The notes: generated by a model not told the origin, from the sequence alone. Counted from the stretch's first letter, positions 17,400 through 52,895 are shown. The stretch: DNA of 64,000 nt from a phage (GCA_020241125.1 GCA_020241125.1_4708.1), one strand, 5' to 3'. Made by a program: numbers and translations.

Positions 17400-19151
17400 A
17401 TGAGCGAACAAGAACGAAAACCTAAGAAGAAACTGCTCGGTATTCAATGTCGACACATCAGCTATAACGAAGCGAACGATGGCAGCAAGAACGACCTCAT
17501 GATCGCAAAAGAGATCATGTTCTTCGATGATAATACGCAAGCGACGAACCTTCGCTTCTTCGAGAATTACAAACGTCCGTTTTGGGTGACGGTAGAGAGT
17601 AAACGTAAGAACAAATATAAAAAGGAAAGCGAGAAGCTCTCGCATGTGCGTCGCTACGATGTCCGCCAAAGCGAACTGGTTGAAAAGATCAGCTCGGTAC
17701 TTTATAAAAGACGTGCTGACGATAACACCCGTTTACAGCAGCTTGCACGGAGTCCATACCTCTATGGAACGGACGTTAGCGCCAGCTGTTATTTAAAAAC
17801 CCAGTACAACACAAAATGGCCGGAATACGTCGATAAATTACCCGCTTCCATTGCCTGTTTCGATATCGAAACCGACGTTGTCCACGGACACGGTAAGATC
17901 GTTTGTATGTCTATTACAATGGGATACAATGCGATACTTTGCTATACCAAGGACTTCGTTGGTCATATTCCGAATGCCATTGAGAAAACCCATGAGAAGA
18001 TTCGATATTACCTGGCCGAACGTCTGAATACCAAAGAAGATCCCCACGCATTCGAAAAATATCAGTACGATGTTCGAATCGTAGAAAGCCCGGCACAAGC
18101 GGTCATCCAATGCATGCAGAAGGTTCACGAATGGCAGCCGGATTATCTCCTTGGCTGGAATATCGCGTTCGATATTCCGCGCATGCTCCAGGCACTGAAC
18201 GAGGAAGGGTATCGTCCCGAGGATGTTTTCTCCGATCCCCGTATACCACCTAAATATCGTATTGCTCGCTGGGTACCACCGAAGACCGACAAGGTATCTG
18301 CTTCAGGTCGTAAAACCAACCTTACCCTTGAGCAAACCTGGCCGATGTTTTATACGATGGCTACGTATCAGGTTATGGATGCGATGTGTGGCTATAAGTT
18401 CGTTCGTTTAGGAAGACCGGATGAAGGACGCTATTCACTCGATGCGGTGTTAGAGCGAAATAAATGCCATACGAAATTAAAAGCTATTCCTGGTACAGAG
18501 GGGTTCACGGAGCTTGCCTGGCACGAAGAGATGCAAACGAACCATCAAATCGACTACGGCGTATATAACCTTTGGGATAACCAGGGTATTGAGGCGTTGG
18601 ACCAGAAAACAAAAGACTATTCGATGACCATCCCTATCCGTTTAGCGGCGTCGGATTTGAAAGATTTCAGTTCTAACCCTAAACGTATCTGCGATAAACT
18701 TTTCTTCGTTTATCTTAACCGTGGGGAAGTCATGGGATGTACCGCTGACGACATGACCCAGGAAGAAGATAAGTGGGTTATCTCACGAGCTGGACATATC
18801 GTCACATTACCATGCGATCTCATGGCTGACAACGGCATTCATCTCTTCTGGGATATGCCGAACCTGAGAAGTTATATCCGTCTATTCGTTGCAGACCTTG
18901 ACATTAGCAGTTCATACCCGAATGGGCAGATCCTGTTGAATCTATCCAGAGCGTGTGTTTTTCGCGAGCTCTCACGCATTGAGGGCGTCTCTGACTATCA
19001 ATTCAGGAAGTTAGGTATCAACTTTATTACCGGAGGTAAAACGAACGCTGTAGACTTCTGTAGAATCGTTTATAAAGCACCATCGATGTTTGAACTTTTA
19101 GAACATTTCGATGCAACGCGTCCAAAAGAGGAAGCGCGGACCATCGAATGA
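17400..19151 (+). CDS. Family-B DNA polymerase, N-terminal part (3'-5' exonuclease domain plus motif A); appears split or truncated
   Basis: Exo I-like FDIETD, Exo II-like GWNIAFDIP, possible Exo III YSLDAV, and pol motif A DLDISSSYPNG (DxxSLYPS-like); no motif B (KxxxNSxYG) or motif C (DTDS) before the stop; flanked by opposite-strand genes. Confidence 0.55.
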   Translation: MSEQERKPKKKLLGIQCRHISYNEANDGSKNDLMIAKEIMFFDDNTQATNLRFFENYKRPFWVTVESKRKNKYKKESEKLSHVRRYDVRQSELVEKISSVLYKRRADDNTRLQQLARSPYLYGTDVSASCYLKTQYNTKWPEYVDKLPASIACFDIETDVVHGHGKIVCMSITMGYNAILCYTKDFVGHIPNAIEKTHEKIRYYLAERLNTKEDPHAFEKYQYDVRIVESPAQAVIQCMQKVHEWQPDYLLGWNIAFDIPRMLQALNEEGYRPEDVFSDPRIPPKYRIARWVPPKTDKVSASGRKTNLTLEQTWPMFYTMATYQVMDAMCGYKFVRLGRPDEGRYSLDAVLERNKCHTKLKAIPGTEGFTELAWHEEMQTNHQIDYGVYNLWDNQGIEALDQKTKDYSMTIPIRLAASDLKDFSSNPKRICDKLFFVYLNRGEVMGCTADDMTQEEDKWVISRAGHIVTLPCDLMADNGIHLFWDMPNLRSYIRLFVADLDISSSYPNGQILLNLSRACVFRELSRIEGVSDYQFRKLGINFITGGKTNAVDFCRIVYKAPSMFELLEHFDATRPKEEARTIE

Positions 19152-19199: not shown

Positions 19200-19231
19200 C
19201 CCCTCCCCCTGGCGGAAGCCGGAGGGAGGGG
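19200..19231. terminator. Palindromic hairpin (member 4) at convergent junction after the PolB fragment
   Basis: CCCCTCCCCCTGGC...GCCGGAGGGAGGGG imperfect inverted repeat. Confidence 0.5.
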
Positions 19232-19237
19232 TGAGGT

Positions 19238-19723
19238 TTATGCGCGTTCGTTACCAACCGTTACTTTGTAGTCAGCGTCGGTTAAGAAAATAGACAGGAA
19301 TCCATGTTCTTTGCAAATCTTACTAAGGATGTCAGCAATGATTTCGTTGATCATCGGCTTGTTTGCAAGGGCATAGATGTACCCGGGTGTAAAAGAAAGT
19401 GCGTGATTGATCATAGGCTCATGAGAAGCCAAGATAAGGATCACATGATGCTTCCCATCGTCGGTAACGACCGCTTGCGTAGACACGAAGAAATCAGTGA
19501 AGCAGCAGCGATCACAGGCTTTAGGTATATACAAGTCACCCAGAGCTTCGTCACGTGCTTTTACGTGTGTTTCAGGGGTGATGCTGCTAAGTTGATCTTC
19601 AGCGAGATCCAAGACATCCTCAATCGTTTTAAGAATAGCGTTGCGGAAATCCTCACGGTAGAATGGGATGATATCACGATCGTTCATGTAATCGCCGGAT
19701 TCGATAGTAAAGTTGATGTTCAT
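19238..19723 (-). CDS. Hypothetical small protein
   Basis: 161-aa ORF, first gene of a long same-strand array of small genes; AGGAG upstream of start. Confidence 0.5.
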   Translation of the reverse strand: MNINFTIESGDYMNDRDIIPFYREDFRNAILKTIEDVLDLAEDQLSSITPETHVKARDEALGDLYIPKACDRCCFTDFFVSTQAVVTDDGKHHVILILASHEPMINHALSFTPGYIYALANKPMINEIIADILSKICKEHGFLSIFLTDADYKVTVGNERA

Positions 19724-19793
19724 TGAATGCTCCTAGTGGTTATGTCGATTGATCGATGTATTGATTTATGTTTGAAGGTGTTGTTCACCTTCG

Positions 19794-20258
19794 TTAGATA
19801 TCGTCATCCGTGGTGCCGTAGGACATATGCTGAATTAATTTTCTCGGCTCGATGAAAATACGACATGTGATAAACACATCGGGATCGTATTGCTCCACGC
19901 AACGTCCGAAGGTTTGTTTTGCGGCTTGGCGCATCGATGTTATTTCCTGATCGTTCATCGCATTATCGAATTCGATGTTGATCGCGATTTTATCGGGAAA
20001 TAAATAGATAAAGTAATCGCCGCTGATACCACCATCATCAAAGTGACGTTCATTGTAGCACTGGACGAGCTTACCTTCACGTTCTTTCTGATACCACCCA
20101 AGGATACTATTAAGACCTCTGTCCACGCATTCGAATGCTTGAGTAATAACATCCTCAACGACGGATGCAGGCGTGGGACCATTGAATAGACGATCTAAGC
20201 GCTTTTTCATCGATTTGGTTTTCTCGTTCATGATTTCTTTTCCTGTTATAATCGGCAT
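19794..20258 (-). CDS. Hypothetical small protein
   Basis: 154-aa ORF in small-gene array. Confidence 0.5.
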   Translation of the reverse strand: MPIITGKEIMNEKTKSMKKRLDRLFNGPTPASVVEDVITQAFECVDRGLNSILGWYQKEREGKLVQCYNERHFDDGGISGDYFIYLFPDKIAINIEFDNAMNDQEITSMRQAAKQTFGRCVEQYDPDVFITCRIFIEPRKLIQHMSYGTTDDDI

Positions 20259-20262
20259 ACAA

Positions 20263-20293
20263 CCCTTCCCCGGCCTGATGGCTAGGGAAGGGG
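20263..20293 (-). terminator. Conserved palindromic hairpin (member 5)
   Basis: GCATAcaa-CCCTTCCC-N14-GGGAAGGG-gcTATGC. Confidence 0.55.
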
Positions 20294-20306
20294 CTATGCT
20301 ACGTTG

Positions 20307-20705
20307 TTATGCTTCGCAATCAGCTGAAGGCGTCGCGCCTTTCTTACCAGCGATACGCCAAATCCGACACGCTGGGTAATGGTTAACCTCTAGAGAGCAA
20401 GGAATGTTATATTTCTCTTCCAGCGCATAAAGACATTTCGTTAGCTGCTCCAGCGCGTTCTCGTCGTGTCGTAACGCGTGGTGGCCTAATCGATGTTGGT
20501 CGTTCTTTATATACGCCTCGAAGAGAACATGTTGGCGATGTACGCTGACGTTTACAGCCTCGAGTATAGCTTGGTCGAGCATACGACTAAAGCACATCAA
20601 CGAGTCAGATACGTTTTCTCGCTTAACCAGATCGATCATGGCGGGAATATACGAATGGTCGATGTTATCGATGACCGCTTTAGCGACGGAATCAGCAACG
20701 TTCAT
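20307..20705 (-). CDS. Hypothetical small protein, paralog A of tandem pair
   Basis: 132 aa; clear similarity to adjacent 20743..21138 product (shared VKAV-DNIDH, MID, EEKYNIP-SLEVN motifs). Confidence 0.6.
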   Translation of the reverse strand: MNVADSVAKAVIDNIDHSYIPAMIDLVKRENVSDSLMCFSRMLDQAILEAVNVSVHRQHVLFEAYIKNDQHRLGHHALRHDENALEQLTKCLYALEEKYNIPCSLEVNHYPACRIWRIAGKKGATPSADCEA

Positions 20706-20742
20706 CTTTTTTAATCCCTAGTTTGTTATTGATCACGTATAT

Positions 20743-21138
20743 TTACTCTTTGACGTCAGTTGTCGTTTCGACATGCTTCTCACTACTGACGTACCAGAGC
20801 AGGTACGCTGGGAAAAGATTGACCTCTAAGCTAAATGGGATATTGTATTTCTCTTCCATTTTACAGAGATGTTCTTTAAGTAAATTTCTCGCGTCTCTGT
20901 CACCACGAACAGAGTGCCAGTCTAGTTCTTTGTTCTCCTTTACCAGGACCTCTACGATGATACGTTGCTCGTGAACCTCGGTTTTCACAGTGAAAAGTAA
21001 ATCGCTGCTATCCAAACGGGTAAAACGAATGTATGAACCAGGTGTTTTTTCTTGTTTAATAATATCGATCATGGTAGAAATGCGCGGATGATCGATGTTG
21101 TCGTTAACAGCTTTAACGATGGATTCTACAATGCTCAT
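20743..21138 (-). CDS. Hypothetical small protein, paralog B of tandem pair
   Basis: 131 aa; paralogous to 20307..20705 product. Confidence 0.6.
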   Translation of the reverse strand: MSIVESIVKAVNDNIDHPRISTMIDIIKQEKTPGSYIRFTRLDSSDLLFTVKTEVHEQRIIVEVLVKENKELDWHSVRGDRDARNLLKEHLCKMEEKYNIPFSLEVNLFPAYLLWYVSSEKHVETTTDVKE

Positions 21139-21170
21139 TTTTTATCCTTAATGTTATCGATTTGGAAATA

Positions 21171-21938
21171 TTACTTATTTTTGCTTTCTTTATAGACAGT
21201 TGTTACCCACGATGGGAAAGCCGGATGGAAACAGAGCGTGAACGTAACTGTCGTATCGTATTTAAACGCACAGTTCACTAACCGGGTATCTAACGTTTTC
21301 CTTAATCCGTCATCATCGTTATCGATGATGGTCATATCTCTTAATATCCCAAGCACGTTAACGCCATCGGGTGTCTGGGTTACGACAAGTCGTCGTAATG
21401 GCCCGCATGTATAGTCACGTACAAATCCTTTCTTCGGGTCCGATACCCTGTTTAACGCATCGTGATTTTTGATGAATTCATCGGCGATACAATAGGTTTG
21501 TTCCCTTGCTTTATCGGGATCGTATTCTGCTAATAGTTCCTTCGTGTCGAATGTTATCGCGTTATTAGCATTCGATTCAGAAGGGAAACATAAAACTAAA
21601 CGAACAGGGTATTCATATTGATCTGTTCTCGTTTCGAAAGCATTAGCTAAACACGGCTTGTATGCCTTTGCGTCGACATTGTCCAAACACGGATGCAATA
21701 ATGCGTGAATAACGGCACCATCGTCAGTTAAACCGAATTCCAGAAATTGTGTTTCATCGACATCCGTGACGGTTTTCTGAAGATACGCTTTACCGTTAAC
21801 GATATCGGTATCCCACATATCGTCGTTTAACGATTCTTCAAACTTATCGAATATATGGTTTACGAAATTGATGAGTTCATCAATACGACACTGTTGGTTG
21901 AATTCGATTAATCGTTGAACTTTATCTCTGATAGACAT
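21171..21938 (-). CDS. Hypothetical acidic protein
   Basis: 255-aa ORF, Asp/Glu-rich. Confidence 0.5.
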   Translation of the reverse strand: MSIRDKVQRLIEFNQQCRIDELINFVNHIFDKFEESLNDDMWDTDIVNGKAYLQKTVTDVDETQFLEFGLTDDGAVIHALLHPCLDNVDAKAYKPCLANAFETRTDQYEYPVRLVLCFPSESNANNAITFDTKELLAEYDPDKAREQTYCIADEFIKNHDALNRVSDPKKGFVRDYTCGPLRRLVVTQTPDGVNVLGILRDMTIIDNDDDGLRKTLDTRLVNCAFKYDTTVTFTLCFHPAFPSWVTTVYKESKNK

Positions 21939-21940
21939 GA

Positions 21941-22405
21941 TTACTCCTTAGTTCCTTCTTCGTTGGACGTATATTCCACATAGTGGAATTCACGGCCGTC
22001 GATAAACTTGAGTGCTACTGTAATAGGGAAATCACACGGCATAGCGGATTTCGTAAATGCGTTATCAGCAACATCAGATAACCGACGTATGGTATTCTCC
22101 CCTTTTGCTATGAATGGGAATTTAATGTTAATAAGGATACGGTGTTTGTAAATAGTAAAGACGACAGTGCTGTCGAAATGTACCCCAGTTAAAGTCATTG
22201 TTGGGATACGTTTTACAACGGAGAAATGTGTCCCGTCAATATCGCTACTTCCCACTGACCATTCATCGGAATTGCGTAGACTTTTCTTGAGGATATCAAC
22301 GCTTTGCGTGACCACCTCAGCAACTTGTACGACGTACGTGTCTTTATGCATGTCGAAAAGTTCGTTGACGTTAGATTTGAATGAATAAACCGTTGCCATT
22401 ATCAT
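21941..22405 (-). CDS. Hypothetical small protein
   Basis: 154-aa ORF; 4-nt overlap with upstream gene. Confidence 0.5.
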   Translation of the reverse strand: MIMATVYSFKSNVNELFDMHKDTYVVQVAEVVTQSVDILKKSLRNSDEWSVGSSDIDGTHFSVVKRIPTMTLTGVHFDSTVVFTIYKHRILINIKFPFIAKGENTIRRLSDVADNAFTKSAMPCDFPITVALKFIDGREFHYVEYTSNEEGTKE

Positions 22406-22860
22406 ACCTCTTTTTTCATCTTCATCGGAACAGCGAGTGCAGCACTCGCTGTTCCATTATCCGGCTCATATTCCAATGTAACGAGATTGCAGCCGTCCGA
22501 TAATTCATAATCGATCGCTAGGGGGAACGAGATACCGTGCGACTTTATGCATTTACCAAATGTCTCGTTGGCTGTATACATTAGAAGTTGCTTTGCGGCA
22601 AGCCCGTTTACGCTGAAAGGTAATTGTGCTGTCGCAGCGATACGATTATTGTAAACTCTGATATCGGTGATATCTACAATCGTAGCATTGCCGTGTTGTG
22701 TTGATGGAACGGATAGGTTGTAGAAGTAAGGTTCGGAGTCGGAATCGGGCTCGTTAAATAATTCCCAGCACCCGTCCTCCTGCAATCTTACTTCGAGTAT
22801 TTCAAAGCTTTTAATTATCGATTCTACCAGCTGCTCACCGTAAGAATCCCATGTCGTCAT
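22402..22860 (-). CDS. Hypothetical small protein
   Basis: 152-aa ORF. Confidence 0.5.
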   Translation of the reverse strand: MTTWDSYGEQLVESIIKSFEILEVRLQEDGCWELFNEPDSDSEPYFYNLSVPSTQHGNATIVDITDIRVYNNRIAATAQLPFSVNGLAAKQLLMYTANETFGKCIKSHGISFPLAIDYELSDGCNLVTLEYEPDNGTASAALAVPMKMKKEV

Positions 22861-22931
22861 TTTTTAACACCTTCGACACCTTTTAACCGATACGTGTCCC
22901 ATCTAACAAGGGACACGATATCGTTGATTAA

Positions 22932-23432
22932 TTACTCTTCTGTGTTTTCATTGTCAGGATCGTAGTGGAATTCGAACAGCCCTGAACCGTCGTGTCCGTT
23001 GATTGTTAGTATAACGGGCATATCGAATCCTCGGACACGCGAATGAAAACATTGTGCTAATTTTAGTTTGGCGTATGCCGCTACTTCATTGACAGCAATA
23101 CACGATTCACCTGTTATACTCAGTATAACGTCGATACTAACAATGTTGTCGTGCAACGCAAAACGCCAGCGATCGATACGATTATTATCTTTATCGGTTG
23201 TCTCGTTTACGAGATAGACTTTATCGTCAACCGACAAAGCGGGACTCCAGCAACGATCGTTTATTAAATTCGCCTGGAGTTTTAGTATCGTCTGATCGAT
23301 AATATCCCAACACGTAACCAGCGTGGTGTCAGGCACTGAGTAGAGAAGGGCGTGCACTTTATCCTTTATTTTAAGTGCTTCCGCAGGACGTCCGCAAATA
23401 CCATGCATTTCGACTTTCTTATTCATATTCAC
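22932..23432 (-). CDS. Hypothetical small protein
   Basis: 166-aa ORF. Confidence 0.5.
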   Translation of the reverse strand: MNMNKKVEMHGICGRPAEALKIKDKVHALLYSVPDTTLVTCWDIIDQTILKLQANLINDRCWSPALSVDDKVYLVNETTDKDNNRIDRWRFALHDNIVSIDVILSITGESCIAVNEVAAYAKLKLAQCFHSRVRGFDMPVILTINGHDGSGLFEFHYDPDNENTEE

Positions 23433-23470
23433 TTCTTTCTTAATCTAAATGTTAGTTGGGGGTGGGATGC

Positions 23471-24103
23471 TTACATGCTTTCTAGCATATTGACGATCAT
23501 GGAACCCATACCGAAACTCGGTCTCTCACCGATATACTCAGCAAGCTGGCGATGGACGTCTTTTGGATTTCCTTCTTCACCGTCAGCATCGATGTAGACT
23601 GAAAAAGAAACCGAATCGGAATCCACGCTGATAACCAGACGACGTTCATTGCGTTCCTTGAGCGTGTCGACGATAGATGCTTTCAGTACCGGGATCGCAT
23701 TCATCGCGTGCAAGATATCTCCATCGGGTTTCGGCAGATCGATCTTTTCTTTCAGGTCGATATTGATGTTGGTTACAATTGGGTTGAGGTCGACCTTGAC
23801 GTAATCGTTAGGGTACATGCGAATAATCGCACGATCGATATCTGAACCGTAAAAGTCAACACGTGGCTTTAACACTTCTTTGTTTGGATCCATGTTTTCA
23901 TCCATACCCGCCTGCAAGAAACGTTCTACGTTATCCAGTTCACGATAAACTAACGCTTCGATTTCTTTCAGATAGTTGGCTGCGGTTTCATGTTCTTTAC
24001 GCAGCTCGTCTTTAAGGAGCTGTACGGTGGTTTCACTGGAACGAATGCTGTTCGCGAATTGGGTAATTGACATATCGAATTCCTTAAATTCTCTTGAGTT
24101 CAA
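23471..24103 (-). CDS. Hypothetical protein
   Basis: 210-aa ORF; start may be the internal Met (MSITQ). Confidence 0.5.
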   Translation of the reverse strand: MNSREFKEFDMSITQFANSIRSSETTVQLLKDELRKEHETAANYLKEIEALVYRELDNVERFLQAGMDENMDPNKEVLKPRVDFYGSDIDRAIIRMYPNDYVKVDLNPIVTNINIDLKEKIDLPKPDGDILHAMNAIPVLKASIVDTLKERNERRLVISVDSDSVSFSVYIDADGEEGNPKDVHRQLAEYIGERPSFGMGSMIVNMLESM

Positions 24104-24120
24104 TTAATGATGAAAAGCTG

Positions 24121-24146
24121 TAAAAAAAGGTGGGGCGAACCCCACC
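24121..24146 (-). terminator. Intrinsic terminator
   Basis: GGTGGGG-cgaa-CCCCACC hairpin with plus-strand A7 run (U-tract on the minus transcript) immediately downstream of gene 24172..24597. Confidence 0.75.
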
Positions 24147-24171
24147 AAAACGTCAGACACACGCGGGAAAA

Positions 24172-24597
24172 TTAATTCAGTGATGCATATAAGGCATAAC
24201 GACTGTAGATCTCAACCGCCGGTCCGTTATGCGTTAACAGACCGTCTCGGCTGTAATACTGGAAAAATGAATAACGTTTGTCGAAGTGATAAACAAAAGC
24301 AATGTCTTTGCCGTCAAAACCTGTGATGCGTGGTCTGTTTTTATCTAGCAATGCTTTGACTTTTAACAGTGTTGCCGCACGTGCTTTAACGTTAGGGATC
24401 AAGCCATCACAATCGATATAAACAGTGTAACCTGTTTCAGATGTTGCGACGGTCGTATTGCGATTGACGCGGAAGATTTTTGTTTCGTATGTACTATCTT
24501 CAAGAATTGGGTTTTGTTTTTCGTATTTTCGTTTACGCAGAAATTCTACAACGGTGATATAGTTAGCGGTAATATGCCCGGTTATAGCTTGTAACAT
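24172..24597 (-). CDS. Hypothetical small protein
   Basis: 141-aa ORF; preceded by conserved promoter/leader element (copy A) and followed by canonical terminator. Confidence 0.55.
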   Translation of the reverse strand: MLQAITGHITANYITVVEFLRKRKYEKQNPILEDSTYETKIFRVNRNTTVATSETGYTVYIDCDGLIPNVKARAATLLKVKALLDKNRPRITGFDGKDIAFVYHFDKRYSFFQYYSRDGLLTHNGPAVEIYSRYALYASLN

Positions 24598-24690
24598 CTT
24601 GACATCCTTTTATATTGGATTGGTTGCAATTGTCTTAAATAGATGATAAGATATTTTGCTCTTATCACTAAGGTAATGTAGTCGCGAAAT
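24598..24690 (-). promoter_or_regulatory. Conserved promoter/5' leader element, copy A
   Basis: Two blocks shared with 52806..52895 at the same spacing from the ATG: proximal (minus orientation) CAATCCAATATAAAAGGATGTCAAG-ATG and distal TTTCGCGACTACATTACCTTAGTG about 69 nt upstream. Confidence 0.5.
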
Positions 24691-24725
24691 AAACTGCGTT
24701 AACACGAAATAAAAAACAGCATAGA

Positions 24726-24768
24726 ACCCTCCTCCCACATCCTTCAAGAGGACGGTGGGAAGAGGGAG
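24726..24768 (-). terminator. Conserved palindromic hairpin (member 6)
   Basis: CATAGAA-CCCTCCTCCCAC...GTGGGAAGAGGG, one mismatch. Confidence 0.5.
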
Positions 24769-24771
24769 AGA

Positions 24772-25173
24772 TTAAATGTCGTGGACGGCAATGCCGTTTA
24801 ACCAGCAATACAGCTTAACGCGACAGGAATACCGCTTCGTTGCGGCAACCATTTCATCGCGTAAACGCTGGTATATTTCATCCTGGTGTTCACGATCAAT
24901 GGGGTAATCAGCCCAACATTCGATCATGACGTCACCATTCGTCAGAATCGTCGTACGCATCCTGTCCTGGATACGGCGGTCTTTCCCGGCATTAGGGAAA
25001 TACATTCCTTCAGTACGAATAAGGTCGCCGCAAGGCATGACTAACCATTCGTTCGTTTTGCCGGTATTCTTATAATCCATTACAGCTTGCATTGCGGTGT
25101 CAACGCTAAAAGAAACATAATTCCAAACGGATGTCCAACGATAGATTGCGGGTTGTTCGAGTGTTTCGTTCAT
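24772..25173 (-). CDS. Hypothetical small protein
   Basis: 133-aa ORF. Confidence 0.5.
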   Translation of the reverse strand: MNETLEQPAIYRWTSVWNYVSFSVDTAMQAVMDYKNTGKTNEWLVMPCGDLIRTEGMYFPNAGKDRRIQDRMRTTILTNGDVMIECWADYPIDREHQDEIYQRLRDEMVAATKRYSCRVKLYCWLNGIAVHDI

Positions 25174-49580: not shown

Positions 49581-49593
49581 ATACGGATTTGTT

Positions 49594-50091
49594 TTACGTG
49601 TGTCGTCGTTTACCAAAGAAAATGTGGCTATCTACCACGGTGATATTGGTAGCATGTTTTCTGAAATGTTTAGGGCGAAGATGTTTCGCGTTAAAGAATA
49701 CGGCTCCTCGTGTTGGGTCGGCTTTATGGTAAGCCGCAATGTCAGTATAACGTAATGTTGCGACCTCTCGTGCTATTGCTCTTGCTCGCTCAAAAGCAGC
49801 ATGATCGCGTATGACAATACGCCTTTGTTTTGTCCAGGGGAATTGACCTCTTTGCAGTACGACGTCTCTGACGTTCGTAGGGAATCGGTAGTCCATAGAT
49901 CGATTATGTATTAAAAACGCCACGGAGTATTGCCCTTTTACAGATTCGCCTCTGGCTTCCATATACACAGCGCATGCGACGATCTCTTTCCGGCAATCGA
50001 TTCTAGGTCCTGCGTTCACCGATGCTTGACTGAACGGTGTGATAAGCAACATAACAAGCCCTAAAATCAACGTGTGTAAAATACCTTGCAT
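49594..50091 (-). CDS. Secreted SleB-like cell-wall hydrolase (candidate endolysin)
   Basis: N-terminal signal peptide (MQGILHTLILGLVMLLITPFSQASVNA); CAVYMEARGES matches the hallmark YxEARGE motif of SleB/CwlJ-type hydrolases. Confidence 0.6.
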   Translation of the reverse strand: MQGILHTLILGLVMLLITPFSQASVNAGPRIDCRKEIVACAVYMEARGESVKGQYSVAFLIHNRSMDYRFPTNVRDVVLQRGQFPWTKQRRIVIRDHAAFERARAIAREVATLRYTDIAAYHKADPTRGAVFFNAKHLRPKHFRKHATNITVVDSHIFFGKRRHT

Positions 50092-52487: not shown

Positions 52488-52805
52488 TTAGTTTGCACGT
52501 AAGAAATGACCTAGAACCGTTACAATTGGAAACAGTCCTGTAACCGTATTATCACCCGAAAACATCATCTTTGAGTCGTTAACGGTGATGAAACGGATGT
52601 CGGTTGCGGATCCGTCGATAGCGACAAAACGCATTGAGTTCGGTGGAAGATCCTCAACAACTTCCACGAGGTGTTCACGATTTTCAAAGGCTTCTTTAAC
52701 ACGACGCATGAAACGAATCAATGTTCCTTCAGCGTCGGCTTCCAAATGACCTAAGATATCGCGATTATTGCGAATAGCGAATACAGACATTTTAAACATA
52801 CACAT
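52488..52805 (-). CDS. Hypothetical small protein
   Basis: 105-aa ORF; preceded by conserved promoter/leader element (copy B). Confidence 0.5.
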   Translation of the reverse strand: MCMFKMSVFAIRNNRDILGHLEADAEGTLIRFMRRVKEAFENREHLVEVVEDLPPNSMRFVAIDGSATDIRFITVNDSKMMFSGDNTVTGLFPIVTVLGHFLRAN

Positions 52806-52895
52806 CTTGACATCCTCTTATATTGGATTGATTGCTAATAATTCAAGGTGAAGCTGATTACTGCATTGCTTCACCTAGGTAATATAGCCGTGAAA
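52806..52895 (-). promoter_or_regulatory. Conserved promoter/5' leader element, copy B
   Basis: Proximal CAATCCAATATAAGAGGATGTCAAG-ATG and distal TTTCACGGCTATATTACCTAGGTG about 67 nt upstream; near-identical to copy A. Confidence 0.5.

Follow-up and report, generated by a model that had tools for sequence, protein, structure and literature searches.

A hypervariable accessory island with a putative early operon and a lineage-specific protein fold family in a Goslar-like jumbo phage

A 64,000-nucleotide (nt) stretch of phage DNA (GCA_020241125.1; this whole stretch is referred to below as the window) carries eleven consecutive minus-strand open reading frames (ORFs) between positions 19238 and 25173, numbered here from g1 at the lowest coordinate to g11 at the highest. 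They had previously been described from the sequence alone (the original prediction) as one array of small proteins, and all eleven are present, encoding products of 131-255 amino acids (aa). The region shares 91% identity with Escherichia phage vB_EcoM_Goslar across 62% of its length, and by this measure the window derives from a Goslar-like nucleus-forming jumbo phage of E. coli/Salmonella (Chimalliviridae). The counterpart locus in Goslar comprises seven genes, gp070 to gp076, every one of which is annotated as hypothetical; gp70-76 are not discussed in the main text of the Goslar virion, PicA, core-genome and BAPS papers, and no paper on them was found. Judged from the Goslar orthologues, ten of the eleven genes (g10 to g1) form a single early operon within a previously undescribed early accessory island, the core of which encodes a new, lineage-specific protein fold family.

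Four of the genes are 96-100% identical in aa sequence to their Goslar counterparts, and the promoter and terminator described below are the same in both phages. These are g11 (24772-25173; 98% to gp076), g10 (24172-24597; 99% to gp075), g9 (ORF 23471-24103 with a TTG start; 96% to gp074) and g1 (19238-19723; 100% to gp070); g10 is the first and g1 the last gene of the early operon. The seven genes between g9 and g1 are g8 (22932-23432; gp073 orthologue, 80% aa identity), g7 (22402-22860; absent from Goslar), g6 (21941-22405; gp072 orthologue, 67%), g5 (21171-21938), g4 (20743-21138), g3 (20307-20705) and g2 (19794-20258; gp071 orthologue, 72%), with g3, g4 and g5 also lacking a Goslar orthologue. 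Goslar therefore has three core genes against seven in the window, and gp071-073 are the closest actual relatives of this core. The true starts of four genes are likely to be internal to the ORFs, at 20231 (g2), 22399 (g6), 23426 (g8) and 24073 (g9), as indicated by the lengths of homologues and the positions of Shine-Dalgarno sequences. For g9 a good Shine-Dalgarno sequence accompanies the ATG at 24073, giving a gene of 23471-24073, and for g2 the ATG of the long ORF is part of a hairpin-linked TATGC motif, which favours the downstream start.

The products had also been described as often acidic, several of them strongly so, which is true in direction only. Ten of the eleven ORFs have a predicted isoelectric point (pI) of 4.4-6.0, the exception being g10 at 9.4, and aspartate plus glutamate (D+E) make up 10-19% of residues; the array averages 15.1% D+E, and the 54 remaining ORFs of the window average 11.7% (Mann-Whitney p=0.0013). 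The bias is real but moderate and does not reach the range of DNA mimics. DNA mimicry was rejected as an explanation on the same grounds, as a pI of 4.4-6.0, a D+E content of 13-19% and a net charge of -3 to -14 are not extreme.

Transcription timing was taken from a published Goslar RNA-seq table comparing control infections with a knockdown of ChmA, which halts infection at the early vesicle stage so that only early transcripts, made by the virion RNA polymerase (RNAP), persist. Under knockdown, the log2 fold changes (log2FC) of gp070 to gp075 lie between +1.0 and +1.3, in keeping with every other early gene. The neighbouring genes show the opposite; values are -3.7 to -4.7 for gp068/069, -4.5 to -6.1 for gp076 and -3.6 to -4.7 for gp077, corresponding to a 12- to 70-fold drop when nucleus formation is blocked, and all of gp048-069 and gp076-093 stand at -2.4 to -8. 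As gp070-075 rise while all of their neighbours fall, the orthologue of g10-g1 is an isolated early operon that sits alone in a run of about 45 middle/late genes in Goslar. On one side of it lie the virion genes gp65-67 and the DNA polymerase gene, and on the other gp77 and gp78; in the Goslar virion paper gp65/66 are assigned to the vertex-binding complex, gp77 is the capsid decorator and gp78 is a subunit of the virion RNAP (vRNAP).

The early timing that had been proposed for the array is thus supported for ten genes, by Goslar orthology or by position in the operon, and is contradicted for g11. The orthologue of g11, gp076, is of the middle/late class and is transcribed with the capsid-decorator gene gp077, and its strong decrease in the ChmA knockdown excludes g11 from the early unit; it belongs to the neighbouring late unit. 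The eleven-gene unit is consequently reduced to the ten genes from g10 to g1, which run from 24597 down to 19238 on the minus strand. Late expression, which had been named as a sign of a structural role, was not found for gp070-075, which are all of the early class.

The 174-nt spacer between g11 and g10 contains, in order of transcription, the hairpin that follows g11 (24727-24766), a promoter motif and a leader, and corresponds to the internal promoter/terminator unit noted in the original prediction. The motif TTTCGCGACTACATTACC (24672-24689, minus strand) is a perfect match upstream of g10 and is a putative early promoter, of the type read by the injected virion RNAP. There are two perfect matches to this motif in the window (0.5 expected). 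When up to two mismatches are allowed, it occurs within positions 1-50 kb of Goslar at exactly four sites and none elsewhere; these are upstream of gp004, gp021, gp040 and gp047, which are all four of the early blocks defined by RNA-seq in that interval. In ten related loci of 13-20 kb it is found exactly once each, and always upstream of the g10 orthologue. Each jumbo phage that encodes an RNAP has an AT-rich early-promoter element of its own, about 10 nt long, and the Goslarvirus motif fits this general rule. Transcription start sites were mapped in the Goslar paper only for chmA and one gene of the non-virion RNAP (nvRNAP).

The 5' leader (24598-24671, minus strand) includes a hairpin, and in it the conserved ribosome-binding stretch CAATCCAATATAAAAGGATGTCAAG immediately precedes the ATG of g10. 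The promoter-plus-leader cassette has a second copy at 52806-52895 on the minus strand, ahead of an unrelated ORF of 105 aa (52488-52805); its motif reads TTTCACGGCTATATTACC, and the 25-nt stretch ending at the ATG is identical to that of g10. The regulatory cassette is therefore reused with unrelated coding sequences. Sigma-70 promoters were also considered, and as consensus matches are rarer than in shuffled sequences (9 vs 15.8), the region is not characterised by host-type promoters. In Goslar (L011), the motif of the gp044-047 block, at 49724-49741, falls within the 5' end of the annotated coding sequence of gp047 (49584-49772), the start of which is thus probably annotated too far upstream.

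Paralogy had been recognised only in the tandem pair g3/g4. This pair is genuine (39% identity across 129 aa, E=6e-30), but the relationship is not limited to two genes and extends to the seven genes g2-g8. All-against-all BLAST and iterated hidden Markov models (HMMs) place g2, g6, g7, g8 and the N-terminal half of g5 in a single sequence family, referred to here as family A, which includes subfamilies of 143-178 aa in related phages at E values of 1e-9 to 1e-16. The product of g5 has two domains. Its N-terminal domain (aa 1-135) matches the family-A HMM at E = 1e-45; its C-terminal half reaches an hhalign probability of 42% against family A and gives a weak, collinear second match to the HMM in 7 orthologues (independent E 0.014-0.16), and is probably a degenerate second family-A copy.

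The AlphaFold2 (AF2) model of g6 (predicted local distance difference test, pLDDT, 84; predicted template modelling score, pTM, 0.75) begins with two N-terminal helices, continues into a four-strand meander and a long helix, and closes with a beta-hairpin, and the model of g3 (pLDDT 83.6, pTM 0.79) has the same order of elements. When BFVD was searched with the g3 model, the sole significant match was a 163-aa family-A protein of Goslar (E=1.3e-6, template modelling (TM) scores 0.60/0.50), and this protein was also the only match of the g6 model (E=7e-11). Sequence bridges point the same way, with an hhalign p=1e-3 for g3/g4 against family A and a match at E=3e-4 between a g3-like protein in locus L014 and the family-A HMM. 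The predicted structures therefore place g3 and g4 as a divergent branch of the family-A alpha/beta fold, and the BLAST and HMM links, the fold matches and these bridges together put the whole core, g2-g8, in one structural superfamily. The shared domain of about 130-170 aa consists of two N-terminal helices ending at an invariant Trp, a meander of 3-4 strands, a helix and a beta-hairpin. Of the aligned columns, L43 and W49 are strictly invariant and most of the other conserved ones are hydrophobic; the only positions that are invariant or nearly so are L16, L43, W49, I92, A113, F117, D125 and Y145. By hhalign, g1, g9, g10 and g11 could be linked neither to family A nor to each other (probability <=4%). 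A single fold for all eleven products was suspected by eye from secondary-structure patterns; hhalign gave this no support, and it is conjectural.

Related loci were gathered from IMG/VR (only 3 loci), metagenomes and assemblies, and their ORFs were labelled by HMMs. Eleven lineages have eleven different architectures between g9 and g1, with a core gene count of 3-9 (three in Goslar, seven in the window and nine in L012). The genes g11-g10-g9 are present in every locus, and g1 is present wherever the locus reaches that far, L016 being the exception in that it yielded no g1 orthologue. The island thus has a conserved frame, made up of g10 and g9 at the 5' end and g1 at the 3' end, and a hypervariable core, g8-g2. 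In the L007 clade the g7-like and g6-like domains are fused into a 305-aa protein, whereas in the window they are adjacent genes; in L002 the g5 N-terminal domain stands alone as a 143-aa gene, and the breakpoint coincides with the domain boundary. The g3/g4 pair is present or absent by lineage, and some loci have added short ORFs of 122 and 139 aa. At 90% identity the family profile collects 193 clusters as opposed to 7 for g1, and the g8 orthogroup comprises at least 59 clusters at the same cut-off, ranging from 62 to 98% identity; g9 is 96-99% identical in aa sequence among close relatives. The duplication and diversification that had been suggested is therefore far wider than was noted, involving both family A and the architecture of the island.

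The divergence of the core is mosaic and not simply fast. Between the window and Goslar, the synonymous divergence (dS) of g2/g6/g8 is 0.46-0.58 and that of the flanking genes 0.03-0.19, and between the L007 clade and the window a segment covering g2-g3 has 89% nucleotide identity while its flanks have 78-80%; both patterns indicate that old alleles have been exchanged. Turnover of the core involves duplication and loss, the fusing or splitting of neighbouring paralogues, recombination at domain boundaries and the passing of old alleles from one lineage to another. Gene-wide ratios of nonsynonymous to synonymous divergence (dN/dS) are 0.15-0.57 in the core, where dS reaches 1.3, as opposed to 0-0.22 for the frame together with the genes next to it (0-0.15 for g10), indicating that the core genes are functional and either more relaxed or more diversified than the frame. 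Their functionality is further indicated by the confident predicted folds and by the transcripts and peptides detected for the Goslar orthologues.

The description of the products as lacking recognisable motifs was upheld, as searches of Pfam, PHROGs, NCBIfam, PADLOC and PDB sequences gave nothing significant; scans of the ORFs against the first four produced sub-threshold noise only. Pfam gave no PF12699 domain in any ORF, and in the library scans no island member had a membrane or nuclease signature. The family profile was run exhaustively with HMMER over 1.84 billion representative proteins and gave 16 matches, all of them to Goslar-like island subfamilies, and in the same scan family A was absent from phiKZ and all other chimalliviruses; as far as these sequences go, family A is restricted to Goslar-like phages. 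Goslar-like phages are known almost wholly through assemblies of bacterial genomes (E. coli, Salmonella and Shigella), and the sources of the database matches are in keeping with this. Complete E. coli genomes and plasmids yielded nothing when searched by megablast. There is no close fold for family A in the PDB, the nearest solved structures being the CamS sex-pheromone precursor domain (3ib5), the PscP substrate-specificity-switch domain (5cuk), PA3611 (3npd) and the pilotin AspS (4ftf). A PD-(D/E)XK nuclease was rejected; Foldseek gave weak matches to UL24 and RecB-like proteins (TM ~0.3), but the D...(D/E)xK catalytic residues are not conserved.

The hairpins reported to bound the array are real and stable (z -3 to -5.8 compared with shuffled sequences), and stand 3' of g1, g2, g3, g8, g10 and g11. 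The hairpin at the operon end (19200-19231, minus strand; -27.7 kcal/mol) has a T-rich tract after it and separates g1 from the convergent DNA polymerase gene. Others are located between g2 and g1 (19774-19792) and between g8 and g7 (22888-22923, minus strand; -20.8 kcal/mol, z = -5.75). A GC-rich hairpin between g3 and g2 (20259-20297, minus strand), followed by TTGTATGCCG, belongs to a recurrent class in which hairpins of the CCCTCCC...GGGAGGG type precede YTnTATGCYGTT (12 matches vs 4.6 expected); sites include positions 1423, 20251, 24715, 25216 and 62872 of the window, on the minus strand. The TATG resembles the core of phiKZ late promoters, and on this likeness these sites may be combined terminator and middle/late-promoter elements.

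Two differences between lineages were seen beside the operon. The DNA polymerase (exonuclease-domain) ORF of the window (17400-19151, plus strand; 583 aa) is unbroken. Goslar and the L007 clade have an insertion of about 1.8 kb in this gene, at the point corresponding to window ~18895-18915 (3898-5678 in L001), which contains gp69, an HNH/NUMOD1 endonuclease gene, together with an element resembling a group I intron (Rfam RF00028, 44.7 bits, E=1.3e-9, under the gathering score of 50). As the insertion is absent from the window, the polymerase allele here is intron-less and endonuclease-less. On the other side, three loci have an extra gene of 151-163 aa directly after the g11 orthologue (L002 9374-9829, L003 9295-9786 and L005 7824-8279). 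This gene is upstream of the early promoter and hence in the late unit, is unrelated to family A, and is missing in the window and in Goslar.

Taken together, a hypervariable early accessory cluster with paralogue expansion is a familiar kind of locus in phage biology. The reading that we hold to be on balance the probable one, if only just, is that g10-g1 is an early operon whose shuffling one-fold core supplies a host-directed counter-defence or takeover repertoire. Under this reading the products would be soluble effectors, made in the host cytoplasm at a time when the phage DNA has yet to leave the early-infection vesicle. Each paralogue would combine the conserved hydrophobic core with a variable surface and bind a different host target, so that the set would jointly form a strain-specific counter-defence or takeover repertoire, which could have a part in determining host range among E. 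coli, Salmonella and Shigella. A bolder form, in which Goslar-like phages deploy a previously unrecognised, combinatorially diversifying effector superfamily from the early-infection vesicle, each paralogue neutralises a separate host factor or immune system that senses proteins or RNA, and the set carried fixes the E. coli/Salmonella/Shigella strains in which a phage can establish infection or persist, is offered tentatively and is rather doubtful.

Among known systems, anti-defence islands and early anti-restriction genes (T7 Ocr, ArdA and anti-CRISPR loci) share with the island that they are early, small, acidic-leaning, variable and clustered. They differ in that the island has no sequence or fold similarity to Ocr, ArdA or anti-CRISPR proteins and is moderate in acidity, and in that a single fold makes up its core, unrelated families being the usual mixture in anti-defence islands. 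The early operons of phiKZ-like phages likewise have an AT-rich motif of about 10 nt upstream and are transcribed by the injected polymerase, both before the nucleus forms and independently of it. The present operon is unlike them in being isolated in a late block, in consisting almost entirely of one paralogous fold and in having no phiKZ homologues.

Several observations weigh against a host-directed repertoire. The sequence and fold comparisons revealed no likeness to any known anti-defence protein. In the core, gene-wide dN/dS stays under 1 and thus gives no direct sign of positive selection. The early timing is that of the Goslar orthologues, and for g3, g4, g5 and g7, which have no orthologue in Goslar, it is deduced solely from where they lie in the operon. 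The best intrinsic-terminator-like site of the region, a canonical stem (GGTGGGGTTCGCCCCACC followed by T7; 24129-24146, minus strand) that is annotated as a terminator in Goslar, stands between g10 and g9 and yet lies inside the early operon. In Goslar the number of reads per nucleotide is not lower for gp074, downstream of this hairpin, than for gp075, upstream of it, so early transcription is not visibly stopped there; the hairpin may act solely on another polymerase, or as an RNA-stability element. Finally, label-free mass spectrometry (MS) of CsCl-purified Goslar virions, in which copies per virion are estimates, gave ~166 copies of gp070 (the g1 orthologue), which a purely cytoplasmic effector model does not predict.

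The island could instead serve the programme of the phage itself, with its products acting as accessory parts or regulators of the vesicle, of nucleus assembly or protein import, or of the handling of early mRNA. Expression at the vesicle stage agrees with such a role, as do the co-purification of gp070 with large assemblies and the conservation of the frame genes g10, g9 and g1 across Goslar-like loci (apart from the locus without a detectable g1). This explanation is nevertheless unlikely, if worth keeping in view, as the family is missing from all other chimalliviruses, whereas vesicle and nucleus machinery is core to them, and 3-9 copies with free swapping of alleles would be unusual for parts of a conserved machine.

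Another possibility is that the products are packaged and injected with the DNA, in the manner of the internal-protein (IP) cassettes of T-even phages or the inner-body proteins of phiKZ. T-even hyperplastic/IP cassettes consist of small genes that lie between conserved flanks and are replaced wholesale between related phages, and the IPI* protein of T4 is a counter-defence protein. The resemblance of these hypervariable cassettes to the island, the high estimate for gp070, the ~8 copies of gp074 (g9) and the virion genes that flank the island (gp65/66, gp77 and gp78) all speak for packaging. T-even IPs, however, are expressed late, carry a capsid-targeting leader and are injected, whereas the island is of the early class; within gp001-gp105, the part of the RNA-seq table used for this comparison, the structural or high-copy virion genes (including gp041, gp058, gp065, gp066 and gp077) are late, with log2FC of -3.5 to -7, and gp070-075 are early. 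The PF12699 domain is also lacking.

The proteomic estimates for the remaining products are low; gp071 and gp076 were found at 3.7 and 2.6 copies per virion, and gp072, gp073 and gp075 at 0.4-0.5, which is the range of nvRNAP subunits and the ligase. The authors reported that the preparation also held nucleus fragments and PhuZ filaments, and it contained ~170 copies of PhuZ and ~126 of chimallin. The family-A proteins (gp071-073, at just 0.4-3.7 copies) are accordingly at the trace level of nvRNAP and ligase, and are probably not virion components. The estimate for gp070 is 40-400 times those of its operon mates despite similar RNA levels, and could reflect packaging, association with large assemblies, or unusual stability or translation. 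Incorporation into virions, which the original prediction had put forward as a sign of a structural role, is therefore indicated in part, for one gene, the orthologue of g1; the packaged or injected reading is plausible for g1 only, and as an account of the island as a whole it is improbable.

Competition between phages, by superinfection exclusion or incompatibility among co-infecting Goslar-like phages, would be compatible with early expression and with the extreme diversity within the lineage, each genome having a different set; Goslar-like phages persist in bacterial isolates, so that co-infection is plausible. No member has a membrane or nuclease signature, and we give this explanation little weight. 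That the core genes amount to evolutionary debris, as recent duplicates in decay and devoid of function, might be suspected from their restriction to one lineage, the lack of matches to known domains and their frequent loss (Goslar keeps only three), but is largely refuted and very improbable given the dN/dS values at considerable dS, the intact ORFs in all loci, the confident predicted folds shared by paralogues merely 10-20% identical, and the transcripts and peptides found in Goslar.

For the host-directed repertoire that we prefer, the closest functional analogy may be with viral multigene families, the "gene accordions" of poxviruses and the multigene families (MGF) of African swine fever virus (ASFV), which have roles in host range and immune evasion. 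These share with the island tandem paralogues of one fold, copy numbers that are specific to strains, fusions and losses, and they too belong to viruses that build their own replication compartment. The accordion feature of adjacent one-fold paralogues whose copy number varies by lineage is seen here, although the proteins are unrelated, the hosts are in another domain of life and the scale is far smaller (3-9 genes).

Nucleus-forming phages shield their DNA, so host immunity must target early proteins and RNAs, and the counter-measures of the phage should then be early cytoplasmic proteins, of which very few are known. The island is a compact and delimited candidate for such a set, with one promoter, a conserved frame and a swappable one-fold core, and it comes with natural variants that have been sequenced in the hundreds (193 clusters) and a tractable E. 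coli system. The early-promoter consensus of Goslarvirus can in addition be used to annotate early operons genome-wide. If the bolder reading were true, the effector superfamily would be a bacterial-virus counterpart of the multigene families of poxviruses and ASFV.

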